Shown: positions 6,134 to 50,854 of the stretch, piece by piece | How positions within the stretch are numbered: the first letter of the stretch is position 1 | How the letters are laid out: every line of letters starts with the position of its first letter | Source: Escherichia phage adrianh | Reading direction: 5' to 3' (one strand) | DNA: 64,000 nt | Sequence record: MN850614.1 | Made by a program: the position numbers and the translations under genes | Notes under the pieces: generated by a model | What the model was told of the DNA's origin: nothing | Databases searched by the model: none | The model's input: only the letters and a program-made list of their open reading frames with translations

Positions 6134-7237
6134 TTACTCATAATCCCTAATAACTAGCCCGACAGGGAACTGTAAAGAACCCTTACGAGTCATCTTCTGG
6201 AACTGAACCGTTAAAGGCTTCCCGATAAACTCTTCAGGATGTTCAGCAAGATACTGTTTCTTCTCATGAGTAGTCTTCCATGAGACATCTACAAAGACGT
6301 TAGGAAGAGTCTCTACAACGAACTTACCATGACCACGCTTATCGGTCTTGACACCAGTCACTTTAAACTCTTCAGTGTGCATCTTCTTGTGCTTAATCAA
6401 GAAGTATGAACGGTGACAACACTCATAGAAGGAGTCTTCAGAGATTGAACGGTACATTGCACCTTCAAACTTAGCTTCAACCCACTTATCGTGAGCTTCA
6501 TCAAACTCTTCCCAAGAATTTACACGACGAGACTTAACAGGAACAACTTTACAGCCGTCTCTAAAGTCATTCAATGGTGAAGTCTCAATAATATCTCTAC
6601 GCTCAGGCCACGTCTTAGTACTGTCACAGATATCGTACCAGTAAAACTTGAGCAAGTGTCTGTCAGGATTGTCTTCATTTTTAATCATGGAGACGATATC
6701 TTCTAAGTCCCACCCATGAGCATAAATCTCTCCATCAAATTCATCAACATCTTTGTGGAGCCTTAACATTGCCATAATGTCAGGTATTAGTTCAGTAGGG
6801 ATTTTGTAAACAGTATTCTCACGAGAATATGCTGTAAATACACTGCCAATACTCAAGTGCCTTGAAATCCTACAACGGACACCATCAAGTTTCGGTTGAG
6901 CATCAGCAGGGAACTTCAGATACTTTGCATGGCTAACCTTTGCAGCATCATGAGCAAGCTGTACACCTACCTTCTCAGTATTCTGTGCAGAATCTTTTGT
7001 GTAAGCATAACCTTTGCGGTCAACTTGCTTTTTATACTTAGCAGCAACTTCAAAGAGAGCTTGCTGTTCAGCATTACGCTCATTCTTTTTACCGATGTTT
7101 TTAGGTTCTGCTGTATACTCTTCAAACATCATCTTGCCATTTTCTTTACCGTAGGTTGTAATAACTTTGTCACCTACAGCAACGCATGACCAAACGTTGA
7201 AAGAGCCGTCTTTATTTTGTTTGTATAGAATTGTCAT
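6134..7237 (-). CDS. ATP-dependent DNA ligase
   Basis: 367 aa; adenylation motif I KLDGVRC (KxDG). Confidence 0.8.
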   Translation of the reverse strand: MTILYKQNKDGSFNVWSCVAVGDKVITTYGKENGKMMFEEYTAEPKNIGKKNERNAEQQALFEVAAKYKKQVDRKGYAYTKDSAQNTEKVGVQLAHDAAKVSHAKYLKFPADAQPKLDGVRCRISRHLSIGSVFTAYSRENTVYKIPTELIPDIMAMLRLHKDVDEFDGEIYAHGWDLEDIVSMIKNEDNPDRHLLKFYWYDICDSTKTWPERRDIIETSPLNDFRDGCKVVPVKSRRVNSWEEFDEAHDKWVEAKFEGAMYRSISEDSFYECCHRSYFLIKHKKMHTEEFKVTGVKTDKRGHGKFVVETLPNVFVDVSWKTTHEKKQYLAEHPEEFIGKPLTVQFQKMTRKGSLQFPVGLVIRDYE

Positions 7238-7242
7238 TCAAA

Positions 7243-7767
7243 TTACCTTAGCATGTGTGATTTTACTGGAATAAAGATACCAAATTGTGAGACTGCTAAA
7301 CCAGATAGTGACATACACTGTTCAGGTAAGTACACAAAAGCCCCTGTGTAGAAGTCTATAAAAGAACCATCATCTTGTTTGCAGGCTAGTTTTCCATAAC
7401 CATAGTTGTACAACTTTAATGAACCATCCTCATACTTTGAGTAGTTCTTGAACTGAACATTAAAAGCATATTCAGAGAACCTTGTGTACAGGTCATAAAG
7501 CAATCCAATACTGTCGTCGACTATTGCTACACCAAACTTTTTACAAATATCCACATAGTTTTTGTATAATTTATTATGATTTTCAGGTGTTGCAAAGTTT
7601 GTATACCAATGTTCTAAGATAGATAACTTAATTGGCTGATTTTTAGAATATTCTAATACCTTCATGTCATACCAAGATTTCCTAAGTCTGACATCATCTA
7701 GCCTTAAATTTTGAGACACTTCGCGGAAGTTTTTGATGATTATATTTCTGCGCCTGTTGTCAATCAT
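7243..7767 (-). CDS. Hypothetical protein
   Basis: Start moved to the internal ATG (MIDNRRRN) because it has RBS AGAGGA upstream and removes the overlap with the gene at 7770-7961. Confidence 0.45.
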   Translation of the reverse strand: MIDNRRRNIIIKNFREVSQNLRLDDVRLRKSWYDMKVLEYSKNQPIKLSILEHWYTNFATPENHNKLYKNYVDICKKFGVAIVDDSIGLLYDLYTRFSEYAFNVQFKNYSKYEDGSLKLYNYGYGKLACKQDDGSFIDFYTGAFVYLPEQCMSLSGLAVSQFGIFIPVKSHMLR

Positions 7768-7769
7768 AA

Positions 7770-7961
7770 TCAATCCTCTGAGTGATACCAAGTGTTGCAA
7801 GCATTACATGCGTAAAGCTCTAAGTCATTTTTATCTGGTTTATGAAAACAGTTCGCTCCGCAGTGGCAACGAAATGGCTTTCCACCAACTGTCAGGACGA
7901 AGGACTGAATCTTTCCATCAGGAGTTCGTACAGCATTTTTATGCTTATCTTCTTTGTTCAT
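7770..7961 (-). CDS. Small zinc-finger protein
   Basis: 63 aa with CHC ... CNAC cysteine/histidine pattern. Confidence 0.45.
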   Translation of the reverse strand: MNKEDKHKNAVRTPDGKIQSFVLTVGGKPFRCHCGANCFHKPDKNDLELYACNACNTWYHSED

Positions 7962-8432: not shown

Positions 8433-8564
8433 GATAGTCTACCTCTCTGTATGTTTTTAAATAGTGAGTGATGAGTTCTGGTAATTCACTACGTTTAACG
8501 TTTGAACGAAGAAGTGTCCAGTCAAAACCTTTACCAACCCTTCCCCAGAGACTGTACATTTTCT

Positions 8565-8798
8565 TCATAGCAACTCCAGAATATCAATACGTTCGCCTTT
8601 GAGTACTCCAGTACGGTCTTTTGCAATCTTACCGTCAACGATAAGGATGTGTGTAGACCTTAAAGCATCGTTGTTAAAGGTTTTTACGAACTTGCTAGGC
8701 ATGACTACAATGGACATCTCCTGAATTAACTCTGGAGTGTAGCAGTTATCATGAAGTTGCTGAATAACGTCTGCAAGTGTCATTTTTGGTGTCTCCAA
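8565..8798 (-). CDS. Hypothetical protein
   Basis: 77 aa ORF. Confidence 0.4.
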   Translation of the reverse strand: METPKMTLADVIQQLHDNCYTPELIQEMSIVVMPSKFVKTFNNDALRSTHILIVDGKIAKDRTGVLKGERIDILELL

Positions 8799-9592: not shown

Positions 9593-12293
9593 CCTTACCT
9601 GTGCCAGTTACAAGCGTCTCACTCTTCAAACCTAAATTCTTAGATGCCTGACCATACATCCAGTCAGTTATGGCTTTAACTTCTTGAGTCATACTTTCTG
9701 GGCACTCCCAACTGTTTTCATCGTGGTATGCCAGCAAAAGCCTAGCACCAATTGCTGGTTTTCGTCCATTTAATTTTGTCAACCCTTCTTCACATGCTCT
9801 TCTACAAGCAAGGTTAATTGCCTCGTTCTGAATCTGACTTTCCGAACCCATGAGCAAATAATTCAATAACTTATGTGGAGATTTACACCACAACCAAGCT
9901 CCAGCAACCTTTACAAAACCCCCTTTAGAGATTGCAGCAGTCTTACCAAACACCTCTTCAAGTGCCTTTTTAGTTGCTTTGTAGTCAGCTTCCAAGTCAT
10001 CTAACAGCTTCTTAATTTTAGGCAAACGAATAAAGTAGGTCTGTTTAGTCAGTGCACCTTCCTGAGTAGTTGCAGCTTTAATTGTCTTAGCAAACTTCTC
10101 ATCACCTGCACCGAACAGCAGTGCATAGATACCATTCTTAGCTTTCTTACGACCCTTGCTAATCTCATGGAGAAGGTTCTCATCCTGAGTAGCTCGACAA
10201 GTCAAGATATCCTGCTCATCATTCAAGCTAAAGTAAATACTGTTCAGTGTGTGTGCATCAGTCCCTGAATAGACAACGTAAAGGTCGTTCTCAGAGTCAT
10301 AGCGAAGGTACTTATCAATCTCTGGGTTGAGGTACTCATCAAAGTGTTTGCAGTAATAGCGTCCATCTTCTTGACGAATAAACTCAATCTCTTCTTTACC
10401 TTGCGTTACCGCTTTGGTGAAGTCTTTGTCACCCATAAAGTTACAAAGAAGAACTAGCTGGGCTGAGTTCATGTCTACAGAGACAACGTTAGTACCTTCT
10501 TCACAAATCCACACTGCCCTCATTGGTTCCCCATAGACAGCAGCACCAGACGGTACGTTTACAATACCATACTGTGTCATACGTCCAGTTGAAGTACCAA
10601 ATACCATTGCACCAGCACTAAGGCGACCATCAGGACGAATCTGGTTCAACCAACCTTTTTCATCATCCTTTGAGTTCTCAATAGTTCTGCGTCGGTGCAT
10701 CAAAGTATAGTACTTAGCAATCTTCTGTCCAAGTTCACCTTCAATCGTATCATAAGATGACTCAGTAAGCTTTGGTGAAGTACGGATTAAGCAAGGTTCA
10801 AGCAAATCTGTGTATTTCTTCACAGACCAATTATGCTCAATGTACTGTACACCTTCGTGCTCAACATAGCTCAAACCACACCGCTCAACCATTTCCTGCC
10901 ACTTAGGATGTTTTGTAATCATCTTTTTATTGTCTTTGAAACGACAAACTTTGACAGGGCGACCGTCTGAGTCTTTCTTGTAGTTCCAGTCATCTGGAAT
11001 CCAACCAACTGATTTCAAGTAGTCTTTAACAACTGCTACCTGAGTCATACGAGAAACTTCAAACTCAATTGGTGTATATGGTGCATCAATCAAACCTGTG
11101 TAGCGACTTGACTCAAGTTCAAAGTGGTTAACAACGTGGCTGTTATAGTACTTCACAGTTTTGACTGTTTTTACTGGCTTCCAGTCTTTGCATTTCTTAC
11201 CAATCTTTGCATTCAACTCATTGCAAATTGCACGAGCATCCTTCATTGCTACAAAACCTTCCTTGTACTCTTCACCAGTTACAGAGTTGGTTGGTGTATA
11301 GCAATTCCTTTTTTCAATGTTAAAAATCTTTGTAGTTGGCTTACCAAATGGTTTGATTTCATAAGTCTGCATCTCACCATTACGTACCTGCTGACGGTAC
11401 TTTGTCTTAGGGTACTTGGTAATTCTCTTCAGTCCATCTGCATGACCAAATGTTTCAACATACTCATTCCAAGCCCTTGCAAACTCTTCTCCAGTGACTT
11501 TACCTTTGGTCTTAATAGTTGGAGGAAGATGTGGTTCAACCTCTGAAGCAAGCTCATTAGTCAACTTGTCAAGTTCCTTTACATGGAACTCCATAAGCTC
11601 TTTATCAGCTTTCCAACCATTGATAGCTTGCTGGCTCATCCAGAAAGATGTCTCTTTAGCTCGCATGTAAGTCTCATAAGTGTCTATACCACACTTCTTA
11701 AGCTTGAGATACTCGTTATCAAGTGCCCGTTTAGTTTTGGCATTAATACGGATATCTTCTACAACACGAGTGAAGATTTCTGCATTCCACACACCCCAAT
11801 GTTCAATCTCTGGTTTACGGACACCAACACGAGCACCCCATGCAGCCAAACCATGAGCACCTTTATAACCCTTTGGGGTTGGCCTATCCATCCACTGAAC
11901 ACGAGACTGGATAAGAGAGTCCTGAAAGAAATTACTCCACGGTTTACACTTTGGATTATCAAAGTTCCATAAATCAGGTGCAATGTGATTGAAAACCCAC
12001 CAGTCATAACCGAGACCATTATGGATGCAAAGACGTTTTGCCTTTAACGCAAATTCAACACCTTCACGTAAACCACCTTTGATGTACTTAGTGTACTTGT
12101 GACCGAGGATAGGCTCATCTGTAAAGACCCATACAGGTGGCTCTTCATCGTCAGATTTATAGTCTGCAAAGGCCATTACGTGAACTTTAGTGAACTCAAG
12201 GAGTAAACCATCAGTTTCTGTATCACCAACCAAATGTAAGTTTTTAAAATCTACGTTTTCCATTTTTACTCCCTCTAAAATCATTAACCTCAT
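9564..12293 (-). CDS. DNA polymerase, family A, with 3'-5' exonuclease domain
   Basis: 909 aa; exo motif VGDTETDG; motif A-like SVDMNSAQLVLL; motif B RKKAKNGIYALLFGAG; motif C YHDE; uninterrupted. Confidence 0.85.
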   Translation of the reverse strand: MRLMILEGVKMENVDFKNLHLVGDTETDGLLLEFTKVHVMAFADYKSDDEEPPVWVFTDEPILGHKYTKYIKGGLREGVEFALKAKRLCIHNGLGYDWWVFNHIAPDLWNFDNPKCKPWSNFFQDSLIQSRVQWMDRPTPKGYKGAHGLAAWGARVGVRKPEIEHWGVWNAEIFTRVVEDIRINAKTKRALDNEYLKLKKCGIDTYETYMRAKETSFWMSQQAINGWKADKELMEFHVKELDKLTNELASEVEPHLPPTIKTKGKVTGEEFARAWNEYVETFGHADGLKRITKYPKTKYRQQVRNGEMQTYEIKPFGKPTTKIFNIEKRNCYTPTNSVTGEEYKEGFVAMKDARAICNELNAKIGKKCKDWKPVKTVKTVKYYNSHVVNHFELESSRYTGLIDAPYTPIEFEVSRMTQVAVVKDYLKSVGWIPDDWNYKKDSDGRPVKVCRFKDNKKMITKHPKWQEMVERCGLSYVEHEGVQYIEHNWSVKKYTDLLEPCLIRTSPKLTESSYDTIEGELGQKIAKYYTLMHRRRTIENSKDDEKGWLNQIRPDGRLSAGAMVFGTSTGRMTQYGIVNVPSGAAVYGEPMRAVWICEEGTNVVSVDMNSAQLVLLCNFMGDKDFTKAVTQGKEEIEFIRQEDGRYYCKHFDEYLNPEIDKYLRYDSENDLYVVYSGTDAHTLNSIYFSLNDEQDILTCRATQDENLLHEISKGRKKAKNGIYALLFGAGDEKFAKTIKAATTQEGALTKQTYFIRLPKIKKLLDDLEADYKATKKALEEVFGKTAAISKGGFVKVAGAWLWCKSPHKLLNYLLMGSESQIQNEAINLACRRACEEGLTKLNGRKPAIGARLLLAYHDENSWECPESMTQEVKAITDWMYGQASKNLGLKSETLVTGTGKVGKSWLEVH

Positions 12294-12323
12294 ACATTAC
12301 TGCAAAAAATTATAAAAAGCAAG

Positions 12324-12352
12324 TTGACAATGTACTTGACAAGGTGTTAATC
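12324..12352 (+). promoter_or_regulatory. Sigma70-like promoter in divergent intergenic region
   Basis: TTGACA, 17-nt spacer, TTAATC; contains the ACTTGACAAGGTG motif also present near 28085 and 58190. Confidence 0.45.
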
Positions 12353-12520
12353 TTTGCGAAGTGGGTTTTTACTTAAAAGGTTACTTAACAGTTTAACTAT
12401 ACAGATACTTTAAAACTCTTAAAAGATTATTTAATAGCTTTTAAAAAGCTTTAAAGTATAACGTATAGAATACGTTAAGATAAAAGATTAAAACTTAATA
12501 GTTACTTAAAAGAGGCTTAC

Positions 12521-12943
12521 ATGCAGAAAATGTTTGTTCACCCAGACATAGCTGACTTTGTTAGAGCTTTGCAGAAGTTGGAAGAACTTGACATTGCTGC
12601 TCAACGGGAATATGCTCACCATCACAGGAGAATGGTTGATATACAACATGAAATAGAGTTATCTGAAAACTATGAAGATGACTTAAAATGCTCTGTGTTT
12701 GAGCATATGAAAGATGTTGCTACAGCGAGACGTAAAGCTAAAGACACAGTTGCTTTACTAGATTCTCTTAAAAAGAGGTTGCAAAGTGGTACAGACCTGT
12801 GTAATCTAGCGTCACTGATTAACGATGTTGAAACTTCTTGGGATAGGCACTATTATCCACGTTCTGAAAAGACACTTGACTTTTCTTCATCCGAAAACTT
12901 AAAATGTTCTAGAAAGAAACTTAACCAACTGAGAGAGAAATAA
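12521..12943 (+). CDS. Hypothetical protein
   Basis: 140 aa ORF, first gene of the plus-strand block. Confidence 0.5.
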   Translation: MQKMFVHPDIADFVRALQKLEELDIAAQREYAHHHRRMVDIQHEIELSENYEDDLKCSVFEHMKDVATARRKAKDTVALLDSLKKRLQSGTDLCNLASLINDVETSWDRHYYPRSEKTLDFSSSENLKCSRKKLNQLREK

Positions 12944-43109: not shown

Positions 43110-43197
43110 AGTACTTTACAAGGGGCTTATAGTTCGATAAAGTAAGCCCCAGATAAAGAGCTTTACCAAATTAACCCTTAAACTAGGAGATTCAAAA
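43109..43197 (+). promoter_or_regulatory. Type A cassette, copy 1 (promoter-like, stem-loop, RBS)
   Basis: AAGTACTTTACAAGGGGCTTATAGTTCGATAAAGTAAGCCCCAGATAAAGAGCTTTACC ... GGAGA ... ATG; TTTACA-N17-TAAAGT with GGGGCTTA/TAAGCCCC stem. Confidence 0.55.
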
Positions 43198-48837: not shown

Positions 48838-48903
48838 ATTACTAATCAACGGGAGGCGACAACCTCCCCACTAAATAAAACCCTTAAACTAGGAGATTCA
48901 AAA
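48832..48903 (+). promoter_or_regulatory. Type B cassette, copy 6 (loop variant)
   Basis: Stem GGGAGG/CCTCCC kept while the loop changes to CGACAA. Confidence 0.5.
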
Positions 48904-49152
48904 ATGGCAACTATCCGCGCTACTGTTAACGAGTTCGGTTTTTCCTCTCTGGATGTTAAATTTGACATTGTAGGCACTGATAACGCCTTTGAAATGGTGA
49001 AAGGTCTTATCAGTCAGACCATCAAAGGCTATAATCCTTCTAAGGAGTTCTGGGAGGAAACAAAACAGGAAGTTCTTAAGGATGGTTACACTTATCACTA
49101 TTGGGGAGAAAAAATCGTCTCCCTGTACTACGACAAACAAGATTATAACTAA
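48904..49152 (+). CDS. Hypothetical protein (small-gene array 14)
   Basis: 82 aa. Confidence 0.5.
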   Translation: MATIRATVNEFGFSSLDVKFDIVGTDNAFEMVKGLISQTIKGYNPSKEFWEETKQEVLKDGYTYHYWGEKIVSLYYDKQDYN

Positions 49153-49191
49153 TCGGCGCAGCGGGGCTAAATAGCCCCAGATACCTTTACA

Positions 49192-49217
49192 GCCCCTTTC
49201 CCATAGGGGCTTTTTTA
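49192..49217 (+). terminator. Rho-independent terminator closing the plus-strand block
   Basis: GCCCCT-TTCCCAT-AGGGGC hairpin followed by TTTTTT. Confidence 0.65.
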
Positions 49218-49219
49218 CG

Positions 49220-50780
49220 TCTATCCAATCCTCATACAACCCCTTTCCCTTTCCTTTCCAGAATCTTATCAGACCTTAAAAAGCAATAACTTTACAGCCT
49301 TTTACTAAGTCAATTAATTGGCCTTATTAATAAGCCCTTAAACATAAGCCAATAACCCCAGAAAGGGGGCAACCCATTTAAACGCCATATAAAGCCCTAT
49401 AACGGCCTTTTTAACCTAACTTAAGGGATTGCATTACCTCACCCTTAAAAGCCCTTTATAAAGCTTCACAGAGCCTTAAAAGAATCTTATAAGGGTGTAA
49501 GCTTTATTATCTCGTTAGCTATCTTGTGAACTACTAAACAACCCCCTTGATAGTAACTGAAAAGTATGTTATAGGGGCTTTAAAGTTACTTTGAAGTATC
49601 TTAAGAGTTACGTAAATGCTAGCCCCCTTAACATTCTCTTAACAATTTCTTAACAATCCCTACATAGTTATGCTTTTAAGGCACTTGTTAGCAACTTGTT
49701 AGCCCCTTGTTAAATCTCTGTTAAGACCACGTAAAAGCCTTGTAAGAGTCTTTGACATAGCCTTTAAAGCTTCTGTAAAGCCTTATAAAGAGGTGTCTGT
49801 ACAGTTGGGGTGTAACTACTAGTGAGAGACTTAAAAGAGCTTACAAGGAGCTATAGAGAGCTTTTAAGAGGTATGTTTAAGGAATCACTAAGAAAGGAAA
49901 GGGAACGATAAGAAAAGAGTAGTGACCATGTTAATAGCTTGTTAAAAAGATTAAACACTTGTTAGAAACTTGTTAATTATCTTAACAAAATAACTCTTTA
50001 AAATTAACTTGTTAGCTCTTGTTAGTCATCTGTTAAGCCTCTGTAAAGACTATTCAGCACTTGTTAATTGGTATTGTTACCAATCCCTAGAAAACTGTTA
50101 AGCCCTTGTCAGTTCTGTTAAGAAACTGTTAAGACCTTTGAAGAGTTGTTAAGAAGATGTGAGAACTGTTAAGAGATTGTTAAGGATATTTTAAAATTTT
50201 GCAAAGGGGATGTTACAGGGATGTTAAGGGCTACCAAGCAGATATACATCCTCTACAGATATTTTTCAGTTCCTTCAAAGACCCTAAAAAAAAAATGACT
50301 TGACAGTCTTATTTTATAAAAATTTTAAAATTCTGAATAATTACCTAGACAGTCTTTTAAAAATACAGGTAGAAACAGGCTTATAAGATACCTTGTTAGT
50401 ACCGTGTTAGACCTTGTGAGATAAGGTCTGTGAAGATATTCCTGTTAAGTTTGTTAAAACAGCCTATATAGAGGCTTAGTAATACCTAGTGAACACCTAT
50501 AGAGGGTAACATAGCTAACCTAGAGATTAAGAGGTGTATAGGAGCTTCTAAGAGTGTGTAGAGAGATGGTTAAGGTGATTGTATAGGTTGTTAAGAAGGC
50601 TTGTTAGAAGAGTGTTTAGAAGGCTTGTTAGAGGGCTAGTTAGAAGGGTTATACAGAGGGGCTATTAAGACCACTAGATAGTTACTAAGATACTATATAG
50701 TACTATATAACTATATATAGAGAGTAAGATTAAGAAGGTTGTTAAGAAGGGTAGATATTTTATTCACATATGATGGTGAC
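49220..50780. repeat. ORF-free region dense in short direct repeats (iteron-like)
   Basis: No ORF of 60 aa or more on either strand over about 1.6 kb; 49220-49520 rich in AGCC(C/T)TTWWAA-type motifs; 49520-50700 carries more than 25 copies of YTGTTARG; AT-rich ACTATATA repeats at about 50690-50725. Confidence 0.6.
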
Positions 50781-50854
50781 CCAGAGGTTGGGACAACCGA
50801 TAAAATTTTATAAAAATTAAAAAGCCCCCCAATTAAGGAGGCTCTTAAGATATT

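Follow-up and report, generated by a model that had tools for sequence, protein, structure and literature searches.

Gene-free region and its surroundings

We analyzed a 64,000-nucleotide stretch of the genome of Escherichia phage adrianh (sequence record MN850614.1), referred to here as the window, and within it a gene-free region at positions 49220-50780 that very probably contains the direct terminal repeat (DTR) of the phage, embedded in arrays of a short motif with the core TGTTA. An initial annotation, made from the letters of the sequence, had described this region as free of open reading frames (ORFs) of 60 aa or more, saturated with short direct repeats and flanked by convergent transcription units bounded by terminators, and had put it forward as a candidate replication origin or regulatory hub. 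Its structural description of the surroundings is accurate. Neither strand contains an ORF of at least 60 aa between 49240 and 50854, the longest being three ORFs of 30-35 aa, and the flanking units do converge on the region, each closed by an intrinsic terminator (Table 1). A 113-aa, TTG-initiated ORF on the minus strand (48898-49239), antisense to an 82-aa gene (48904-49152), crosses the first of these terminators into the start of the region and is very likely spurious.

Using the annotation of phage Bas63 as a guide, the plus-strand block upstream of the region comprises the primase/helicase, nrd genes and rIIA/B, followed by many small genes, and the minus-strand block downstream comprises small genes and an endolysin. 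When 1.7 kb around the region were compared with sequence records, 256 phage records were matched, 173 of them with a single match covering at least 80% of the query and mostly 80-93% identical to it. All the matching records that were inspected belong to the Ounavirinae and most of them to Felixounavirus (Felix O1-like myoviruses), and by homology the window is a Felixounavirus genome.

Probable direct terminal repeat and genome ends

Several GenBank records of related phages begin inside the region. Three relatives, Ro111lw, D4 and Pr103Blw, were deposited with both copies of a terminal repeat, and their two ends are 100% identical over 613, 581 and 581 bp, respectively; all three start with GCCCCCTTAACAT and end with TGTTAAGGGCTACC. 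Mapped onto the window, these ends (records MH571750, with 613 bp, and PP886228 and MW481326, with 581 bp each) fall at positions 49622 and 50235. The recurrence of the same first (GCCCCCTTAACAT) and last (TGTTAAGGGCTACC) bases in four independently sequenced phages from two genera argues for fixed, rather than permuted, termini.

Annotations and experiments on relatives place the ends at or close to the same borders. In the Pr103Blw record (MW481326) the 581-bp ends, found with PhageTerm, are labeled as a short direct terminal repeat (PMC8303462), and Ro111lw, with a 613-bp DTR, was likewise analyzed with PhageTerm (PMC6454146). The record of Citrobacter phage HP1 (Mooglevirus, OK539913) carries an annotated 570-bp repeat_region with the same borders, adjoining a protein that is only 45% identical. 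In UAB_Phi87, Bal31 digestion and run-off sequencing defined a 608-bp DTR extending from AACATTTTCTTAAC to GGGCTACCAA (PMC4837284), which corresponds to positions ~49632-50237 of the window and hence lies within 10 bp of the left end and within 2 bp of the right end placed here. The large terminases of UAB_Phi87 and Felix O1 are also reported to group with DTR-type terminases (PMC4837284). In the more distant Erwinia phage PP079183 both ends are 100% identical over 401 bp, giving a DTR of 401 bp as against 570-614 bp in the Felixounavirus and Mooglevirus records.

These correspondences make it highly probable that positions 49622-50235 constitute the 614-bp DTR of the phage, present in the window as a single copy. 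Read by homology, the window is the joined, or concatemer-junction, form of the genome, in which a right-arm tail (49220-49621, ~400 bp of non-coding DNA) precedes the DTR and a left-arm start (50236-50780, 545 bp of non-coding DNA) follows it. A junction of two genome ends explains why the region has no genes, why transcription converges on it and why terminators close it on both sides; that the region is the genome terminus had escaped the initial annotation.

The record of the Erwinia phage, vEam_W_25 (PP079183.1), ends with AGATCGGAA, the start of an Illumina adapter, directly after the terminal repeat. This adapter is a contaminant of the record, yet also direct evidence of a physical DNA end at the border of the repeat.

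Table 1. Coordinates of features in and around the gene-free region (positions in the window; a slash within a sequence marks a genome end; PWM, position weight matrix).
Feature	Position	Strand	Basis or remarks
Intrinsic terminator of the rightward gene block	49191-49211 or 49191-49217	+	7-bp stem with 5 G-C pairs, T-run; conserved in relatives
Non-coding arm by the right genome end, with degenerate inverted motif copies	49220-49621	-	Relaxed TKTWARG counts
Imperfect 58-nt palindrome in the right-end arm	49440-49497		DNA fold -10.1 kcal/mol, z = -3.0
Left boundary box TAGCCCCCTTAACAT; left genome end at 49622 (gcTA/GCCCCC)	49620-49634		Four records start GCCCCCTTAACAT
Direct terminal repeat (very probable), 614 bp, single copy in the window	49622-50235		Homology to the ends of relatives
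Three TGTTAA copies with 11-bp period, just inside the left end	49627-49658	-	ArcA-PWM 19.0 and 22.5 bits
Invariant CTACATAGTTATG at the switch in motif orientation	49660-49672		Alignment of relatives
Four CTTGTTAR copies with exactly 11-bp spacing	49684-49725	+	Repeat search
Dense block with 17 TGTTA cores (+) and 1 (-), up to the right end	49926-50235	+	Motif count
Perfect palindrome TTGTTAA-TTATC-TTAACAA	49970-49988		Invariant in 6 of 7 phages, three genera
Right boundary box ATGTTAAGGGCTACC, inverted copy of the left box; right genome end at 50235	50221-50235		Ends of relatives' records
Conserved AAGCAGATATACATCC (also given as AAGCAGATATACA) directly outside the right cut	50236-50251		Alignment of relatives
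AT-rich conserved block with core TATTTTATAAAAATTTTA	50286-50345		Composition and alignment
43-bp block with only one variable position and three motif copies 10-11 bp apart	50375-50417	+	Alignment
Five copies of TTGTTAGAAGGC with 12-bp period	50585-50650	+	Repeat search (score 69)
Tandem ACTATATAG units, a second conserved motif family	50692-50724		Repeat search and alignment
Conserved block with one DnaA-box-like 9-mer TTATTCACA at 50760-50768	50752-50783		Alignment of relatives
Intrinsic terminator of the leftward gene block	50820-50846	-	11 pairs, T-run

Boundary boxes and phased TGTTA arrays

The DTR is bracketed by inverted copies of TAGCCC(CC)TTAACAT, a box of 13-15 bp that appears in mirror orientation at the two borders, as gcTA/GCCCCCTTAACAT on the left and as ATGTTAAGGGCTACC/aagc on the right. 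Copies of the TGTTA motif lie just inside the boxes, three at the left boundary and two at the right. The conserved element directly outside the right cut has a counterpart that is still recognizable in the Erwinia phage as TAAGTAGATATACA. The perfect palindrome in the dense block is followed immediately by a 1-nt deletion in phage Sf14, and the imperfect palindrome of the right-end arm is kept in all five aligned phages that extend that far, the window included.

Motif counts were compared with those in 1000 dinucleotide-preserving shuffles of positions 49220-50780 themselves. YTGTTAR occurs 24 times on the plus strand and three times on the minus strand, against shuffle means of 1.35 and 0.92 (maxima 6 and 5); the corresponding counts are 27 and 4 for TGTTAR (2.25 and 1.36 in shuffles) and 12 and 0 for CTTGTTA (0.32 and 0.24). 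Elsewhere in the window YTGTTA is found about once per 1.56 kb per strand. The repeat enrichment reported initially is thus well founded, although the figure of more than 25 copies given for YTGTTARG holds for the 6- or 7-mer core and not for the literal 8-mer, which has 14 matches (11 on the plus and 3 on the minus strand). Altogether the region contains 35 TGTTA cores, 30 of them on the plus strand and 25 inside the DTR, with the consensus (C/T)TGTTA(A/G)(G/A) and little information beyond the core.

The copies had been called irregularly spaced, a description that the distances contradict: nearest-neighbor gaps concentrate at 11 bp (10 times), 20-21, 31 and 33 bp, and pairwise distances between cores are phased at 10.3-10.5 bp (R = 0.45). 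A phasing of ~10.4 bp places the copies on one face of the helix. Their orientation is equally ordered. The relaxed pattern TKTWARG has 13 matches on the minus strand and one on the plus strand in 49150-49650, against 19 on the plus and five on the minus strand in 49650-50750, so that the motif flips at ~49660, just inside the left boundary, from leftward before to rightward after. The first part of the region had been credited with a motif of its own, AGCC(C/T)TTWWAA; taken literally, AGCCYTTWWAA has no match in the region, and with two mismatches allowed the pattern is too loose to inform. What does exist there is a degenerate family on the opposite strand: read in reverse complement, the initial pattern becomes TTWWAARGGCT (close to TGTTAAGGGCT), a degenerate relative of the TGTTA motif. 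The arm that carries these copies is less conserved than the DTR and contains indels.

Conservation of the non-coding DNA

In a comparison with Mooglevirus genomes by 100-bp bins, identity across the DTR and right flank is mostly 76-88%, with minima of 0.42 and 0.67; the flanking coding sequence ranges from 0.32 to 0.80 and is mostly less similar. In an alignment of seven phages from three genera, 69% of the positions within TGTTA cores are invariant, against 55% elsewhere (p = 6e-4), and CTTGTTA or TGTTAA is the commonest junction k-mer in all seven. The same k-mers rank first across Felixounavirus, Suspvirus, Mooglevirus and Kolesnikvirus. In the Erwinia phages (Kolesnikvirus) only ~125 bp, at the right boundary, can still be aligned, and the 1.44-kb Erwinia junction nonetheless contains 19 and 8 copies of TGTTAR on the two strands, versus 1.5 in shuffles, along with a separate left-arm motif, CTTCTAA. 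At the level of sequence, retention of the motif while the surrounding DNA diverges indicates a conserved binding partner.

This pattern bears directly on a neutral reading, in which slippage during replication, or recombination, generated the repeats as a by-product in terminal DNA that the phage could do without. The length of the region does vary among relatives, through indels of 11-23 bp and through differing DTR lengths, but the motif, its phasing and many of its single copies are conserved over three to four genera, and better so than the neighboring coding sequence. We consider a neutral origin of the arrays highly improbable.

Replication and transcription as alternative functions

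Strong conservation across genera shows a function in cis, which could in principle be that of a replication origin, as the initial annotation had it, with the repeats acting as iterons and the AT-rich block at 50286-50345 as the unwinding element. Like iteron origins, the region has tandem direct motifs of a protein-binding type next to an AT-rich block, here a conserved one adjoined by phased repeats, and it contains one DnaA-box-like 9-mer at 50760. Origins at or near terminal repeats also exist in other phages. The details nevertheless fit poorly. Iterons are ~17-22 bp long and usually spaced at ~22 bp, whereas the repeat unit here is a 5-7-bp core with an 11-bp period. The DnaA-box pattern TTWTNCACA has three matches in the 64 kb, and the one in the region is conserved in neither Mooglevirus nor Suspvirus. 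No initiator gene was found among the ten flanking genes with Pfam and PHROGs. Cumulative GC skew, which had been suggested as a check, has its maximum at the region (~51 kb) and its minimum at ~12 kb, the wrong sign for an origin, although this is a weak argument in a genome where skew tracks the direction of transcription. An origin within the region is accordingly improbable.

At the cumulative GC-skew minimum lies the AT-rich intergenic segment at ~12260-12520, between the divergent DNA polymerase (minus strand) and primase-helicase (plus strand) blocks, with two TTGACA hexamers and repeats resembling ACTTAAAAG. As an origin candidate this segment is more conventional than the region at 49220-50780.

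A second alternative, in line with the other half of the initial headline, is that the region controls transcription or encodes small RNAs or peptides. Several relatives' records annotate hypothetical proteins of 30-50 aa in it, and elements TTGACAGTCTT and TAGACAGTCTT are present at 50300 and 50346. Promoter-like sites, however, occur at chance frequency (11 found versus 7.6 +/- 3.0 expected), the TTGACA hexamer in the region is not conserved, and terminators close the region on both sides with no gene downstream. The 30-35-aa ORFs are broken by indels of 1, 4 and 23 nt between relatives in the seven-phage alignment. Rfam gave no match in the region even at E values up to 1, and over the whole window at the gathering threshold it returned only tRNAs elsewhere; folding z-scores are unremarkable (mean -0.67), the palindrome at 49440-49497 excepted. 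Small proteins or small RNAs, which had been named as findings that might account for the conservation of the region, are disfavored as an explanation, and a transcriptional or coding function seems quite improbable. Among the functions listed initially, a packaging site fits best, with the genome ends, the DTR and the surroundings of both cut sites inside the region; the designation as origin or regulatory hub is not supported.

Resemblance to ArcA-P sites

The arrays resemble the operators of a host response regulator, ArcA-P, whose repeat element is ATGTTAAAAA, with a TGTTA core, 11 bp from center to center and two to five repeats per site (PMC3798270, PMC4173790); the footprinted ArcA site of plasmid R1 is TGTTAAGTAAATGTTAA (PMC7303359). 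The 35 TGTTA cores, 30 on one strand, reproduce the direct-repeat layout, and TGTTA-N6-TGTTA, which has the ArcA-P spacing, occurs 10 times on the plus and twice on the minus strand. The exact arrangement TGTTAA-N5-TGTTAA has seven matches in the window, where shuffles predict 0.03 overall, and the DTR accounts for six of the seven; in all four genera the junction contains four to seven such matches. The sole copy outside the DTR, TGTTAAGATGGTGTTAA, lies at 281-297 on the plus strand, within a minus-strand coding region.

A position weight matrix (PWM) built from 115 of 128 published ArcA boxes gave 16 plus-strand and three minus-strand matches of at least 9 bits in 49220-50780, where the rest of the window predicts 0.8 per strand, and seven matches of at least 15 bits, where 0.04 per strand are expected. 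The best match, at 22.5 bits, exceeds the top training box (21.5 bits), although these scores are not independent of the observation on core and spacing. ArcA is common to the enterobacterial hosts, Erwinia among them, as the title of PMC6895013 indicates. Six-frame ORFs from the window and from the whole Bas63 genome yielded no winged helix of the OmpR/PhoB type (best E value 0.11), a weak test given the approximate query sequences.

On this basis the arrays could be sites at which ArcA-P acts as an architectural or regulatory factor linking end processing, replication or gene expression to the redox state of the host, or at which ArcA-P is drawn off the host chromosome as phage DNA accumulates. 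Several observations count against such a role. The bases around the core run counter to the ArcA repeat model, at -1.23 bits on average, and lack the A/T-rich character of the flanks in ATGTTAAAAA: G occupies the two bases after TGTTA in 26% and 47% of the phage repeats versus 3% and 8% of ArcA sites, and C precedes TGTTA in 21% versus 3%. The array at 50585-50650 has a 12-bp period, which at putP was incompatible with ArcA-P, and a literature search found no publication linking arcA with Felix O1. Scanning IMG/VR for three phased TGTTAA copies returned Ounavirinae and also unrelated viral contigs of 22-49% GC, probably not from enterobacterial hosts, that carry similar 11-bp TGTTAA arrays; such arrays are therefore a recurrent phage design, not confined to phages of enterobacteria, and need not be specific to ArcA. 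We regard ArcA-P binding as rather unlikely overall.

With the multi-repeat ArcA-P operators of E. coli, and with the ArcA site in the PY promoters of F-like plasmids, the phage arrays share the TGTTA(A) core, the direct orientation, the 11-bp spacing and runs of three to four repeats, and several phage sites score equal to or above the best chromosomal ArcA sites. They differ in flanking-base preferences and in scale, chromosomal sites having at most five repeats and overlapping promoters, while the phage has ~35 repeats in non-promoter DNA at a genome end. A bolder version would have the ends of Ounavirinae chromosomes made of dozens of high-scoring candidate ArcA-P sites that ArcA-P, in the low-oxygen gut, coats as a terminase recognition or architectural factor, or that soak it up and thereby re-program host respiration. 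Host factors have analogous roles elsewhere, such as IHF at lambda cos and ArcA in Xer recombination at psi and at the tra promoters of F-like plasmids. This version we judge unlikely.

In four unrelated IMG/VR contigs the arrays lie at 12650-12880, 6700-6960, 7470-7930 and 8530-8630, and in two of these contigs an inverted pair of arrays flanks ~100 bp, with an origin- or operator-like look. The phage's own annotated transcriptional regulator was also considered as array binder and set aside, being an XRE-type HTH_3 protein, a type that usually binds inverted rather than direct repeats.

A packaging interpretation

The explanation that we favor as a whole, with a probability of about 0.55, is that the region is the terminal region of a Felix O1-like phage in joined form, with phased arrays that guide packaging. 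Taken separately, a packaging role of the arrays, as candidate cis elements, is possible at slightly under even odds. On replicating concatemers, a DNA-binding protein would polymerize along the phased repeats and so mark the junction; this protein might be a terminase subunit for site recognition, with host ArcA-P as a possible helper or substitute. The large terminase would then be recruited and would cut or nick the DNA at both boundary boxes. The 614 bp between the cuts would be duplicated through strand-displacement synthesis, a step proposed for T7, leaving a repeat at both ends of every packaged genome. The mirror arrangement of the boxes would suit a single complex that works at both borders, in opposite orientation and on opposite strands. 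No small terminase has been identified in Felix O1-like phages (PMC4837284), and the Bas63 annotation lists none either, so that the role of recognition subunit is vacant.

Several points weigh against this interpretation. With a single repeat copy present in the window, the termini of this phage are placed by homology; PhageTerm records and run-off sequencing disagree by 10 nt on the left end, and relative to the conserved box the left end of the Erwinia phage is set ~38 bp further inward. The large terminase, located with the Bas63 annotation as a guide, is ~15 kb beyond the region and outside the window, and does not adjoin the site. None of the ten genes flanking the region has a Pfam domain or, in particular, a DNA-binding domain, and all fall in PHROGs of unknown function. 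The arrays extend more than 500 bp past the DTR, a reach greater than any known pac or cos site requires, and their ArcA-like architecture could point to another function.

Comparison with known packaging systems

The concatemer junction of T7 and T3 consists of a short exact terminal repeat with adjacent arrays of short repeats and pac signals. Details of the comparison that follows reportedly go back to Dunn and Studier in 1983 and to Chung and Hinkle in 1990. The present region shares with that junction the short exact DTR, the sequence-specific ends, the non-coding character, short imperfect repeats set in arrays, a right-end arm containing a palindrome and a repeat that must be duplicated during packaging. 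It differs in a DTR ~4 times longer, in arrays that lie inside the DTR as well as beside it, in the motif itself, in the mirror-image boxes at the boundaries and in flanking genes that point to the ends, without inward early promoters. The phage is, moreover, a myovirus with a terminase of unrelated lineage and no known small terminase.

At P1 pac and lambda cos, clustered short protein-binding repeats flank the point of cleavage. Here too short repeats occupy both sides of a cut site, an arrangement that fits cooperative protein loading, but the region lacks the GATC/Dam element of P1 pac and the 12-nt cohesive ends of lambda cos, and has two cut sites 614 bp apart and ~35 repeats rather than three to seven.

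The DTRs of UAB_Phi87 (608 bp), Ro111lw (613 bp) and Pr103Blw (581 bp) are the same element, homologous end to end with positions 49622-50235, and the core identity of the Felix O1-like DTR, its sequence included, is already published and annotated. The sections on termini in PMC4837284, PMC6454146 and PMC8303462 give DTR length, sequence and packaging class only, and the Felix O1 genome paper does not discuss the terminal region. New with respect to those sections are the TGTTA arrays, their phasing and orientation switch, the mirror boxes, the subfamily-wide conservation and the ArcA-like architecture.

These additions place the cut sites between mirror-image boxes, amid a helically phased TGTTA array found throughout the subfamily, and provide boxes and arrays as concrete cis elements to mutate and as bait for the recognition protein. 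Many deposited genomes of the group were opened arbitrarily; with the conserved boundary sequences as landmarks, their true ends can be annotated. Typing of Salmonella and E. coli, biocontrol and therapy all make wide use of Felix O1-like phages. If ArcA-P were indeed the recognition protein, or were titrated, packaging or host take-over would be tied to oxygen status, a new phage-host dependency.

Additional sequence elements

Two insertions of ~23 bp, at 49314-49336 and 50064-50087, are missing from the other six phages of the alignment. Both start with TTAATTGG and are internally palindromic (GGCCTTATTAATAAGCC; TTGGTATTGTTACCAA), with 76% similarity to each other; the second type also occurs in the DTR published for UAB_Phi87, but elsewhere within it. 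Their sequence suggests a tiny mobile or recombination-prone palindromic element.

Before the small genes of the right arm, an intergenic cassette of the form CTTTACA-GGGGCT..hairpin..AGCCCCAGATAAAGAGCTTTACC is repeated in seven plus-strand copies between 43145 and 49183 (at 43145, 43617, 43963, 44564, 45637, 46433 and 49173; eight matches versus 0.5 expected). From its letters, it reads like a promoter of the sigma-70 type (TTTACA, 17 nt, TAAAGT) with an embedded hairpin, and it corresponds to the 57-bp repeats that the Felix O1 genome paper mentions. Of the final copy, which directly precedes the gene-free region, the hairpin alone is left. Further downstream, 18 tRNA genes are clustered on the plus strand at 60374-63996, an arrangement typical of the Felix O1-like group.

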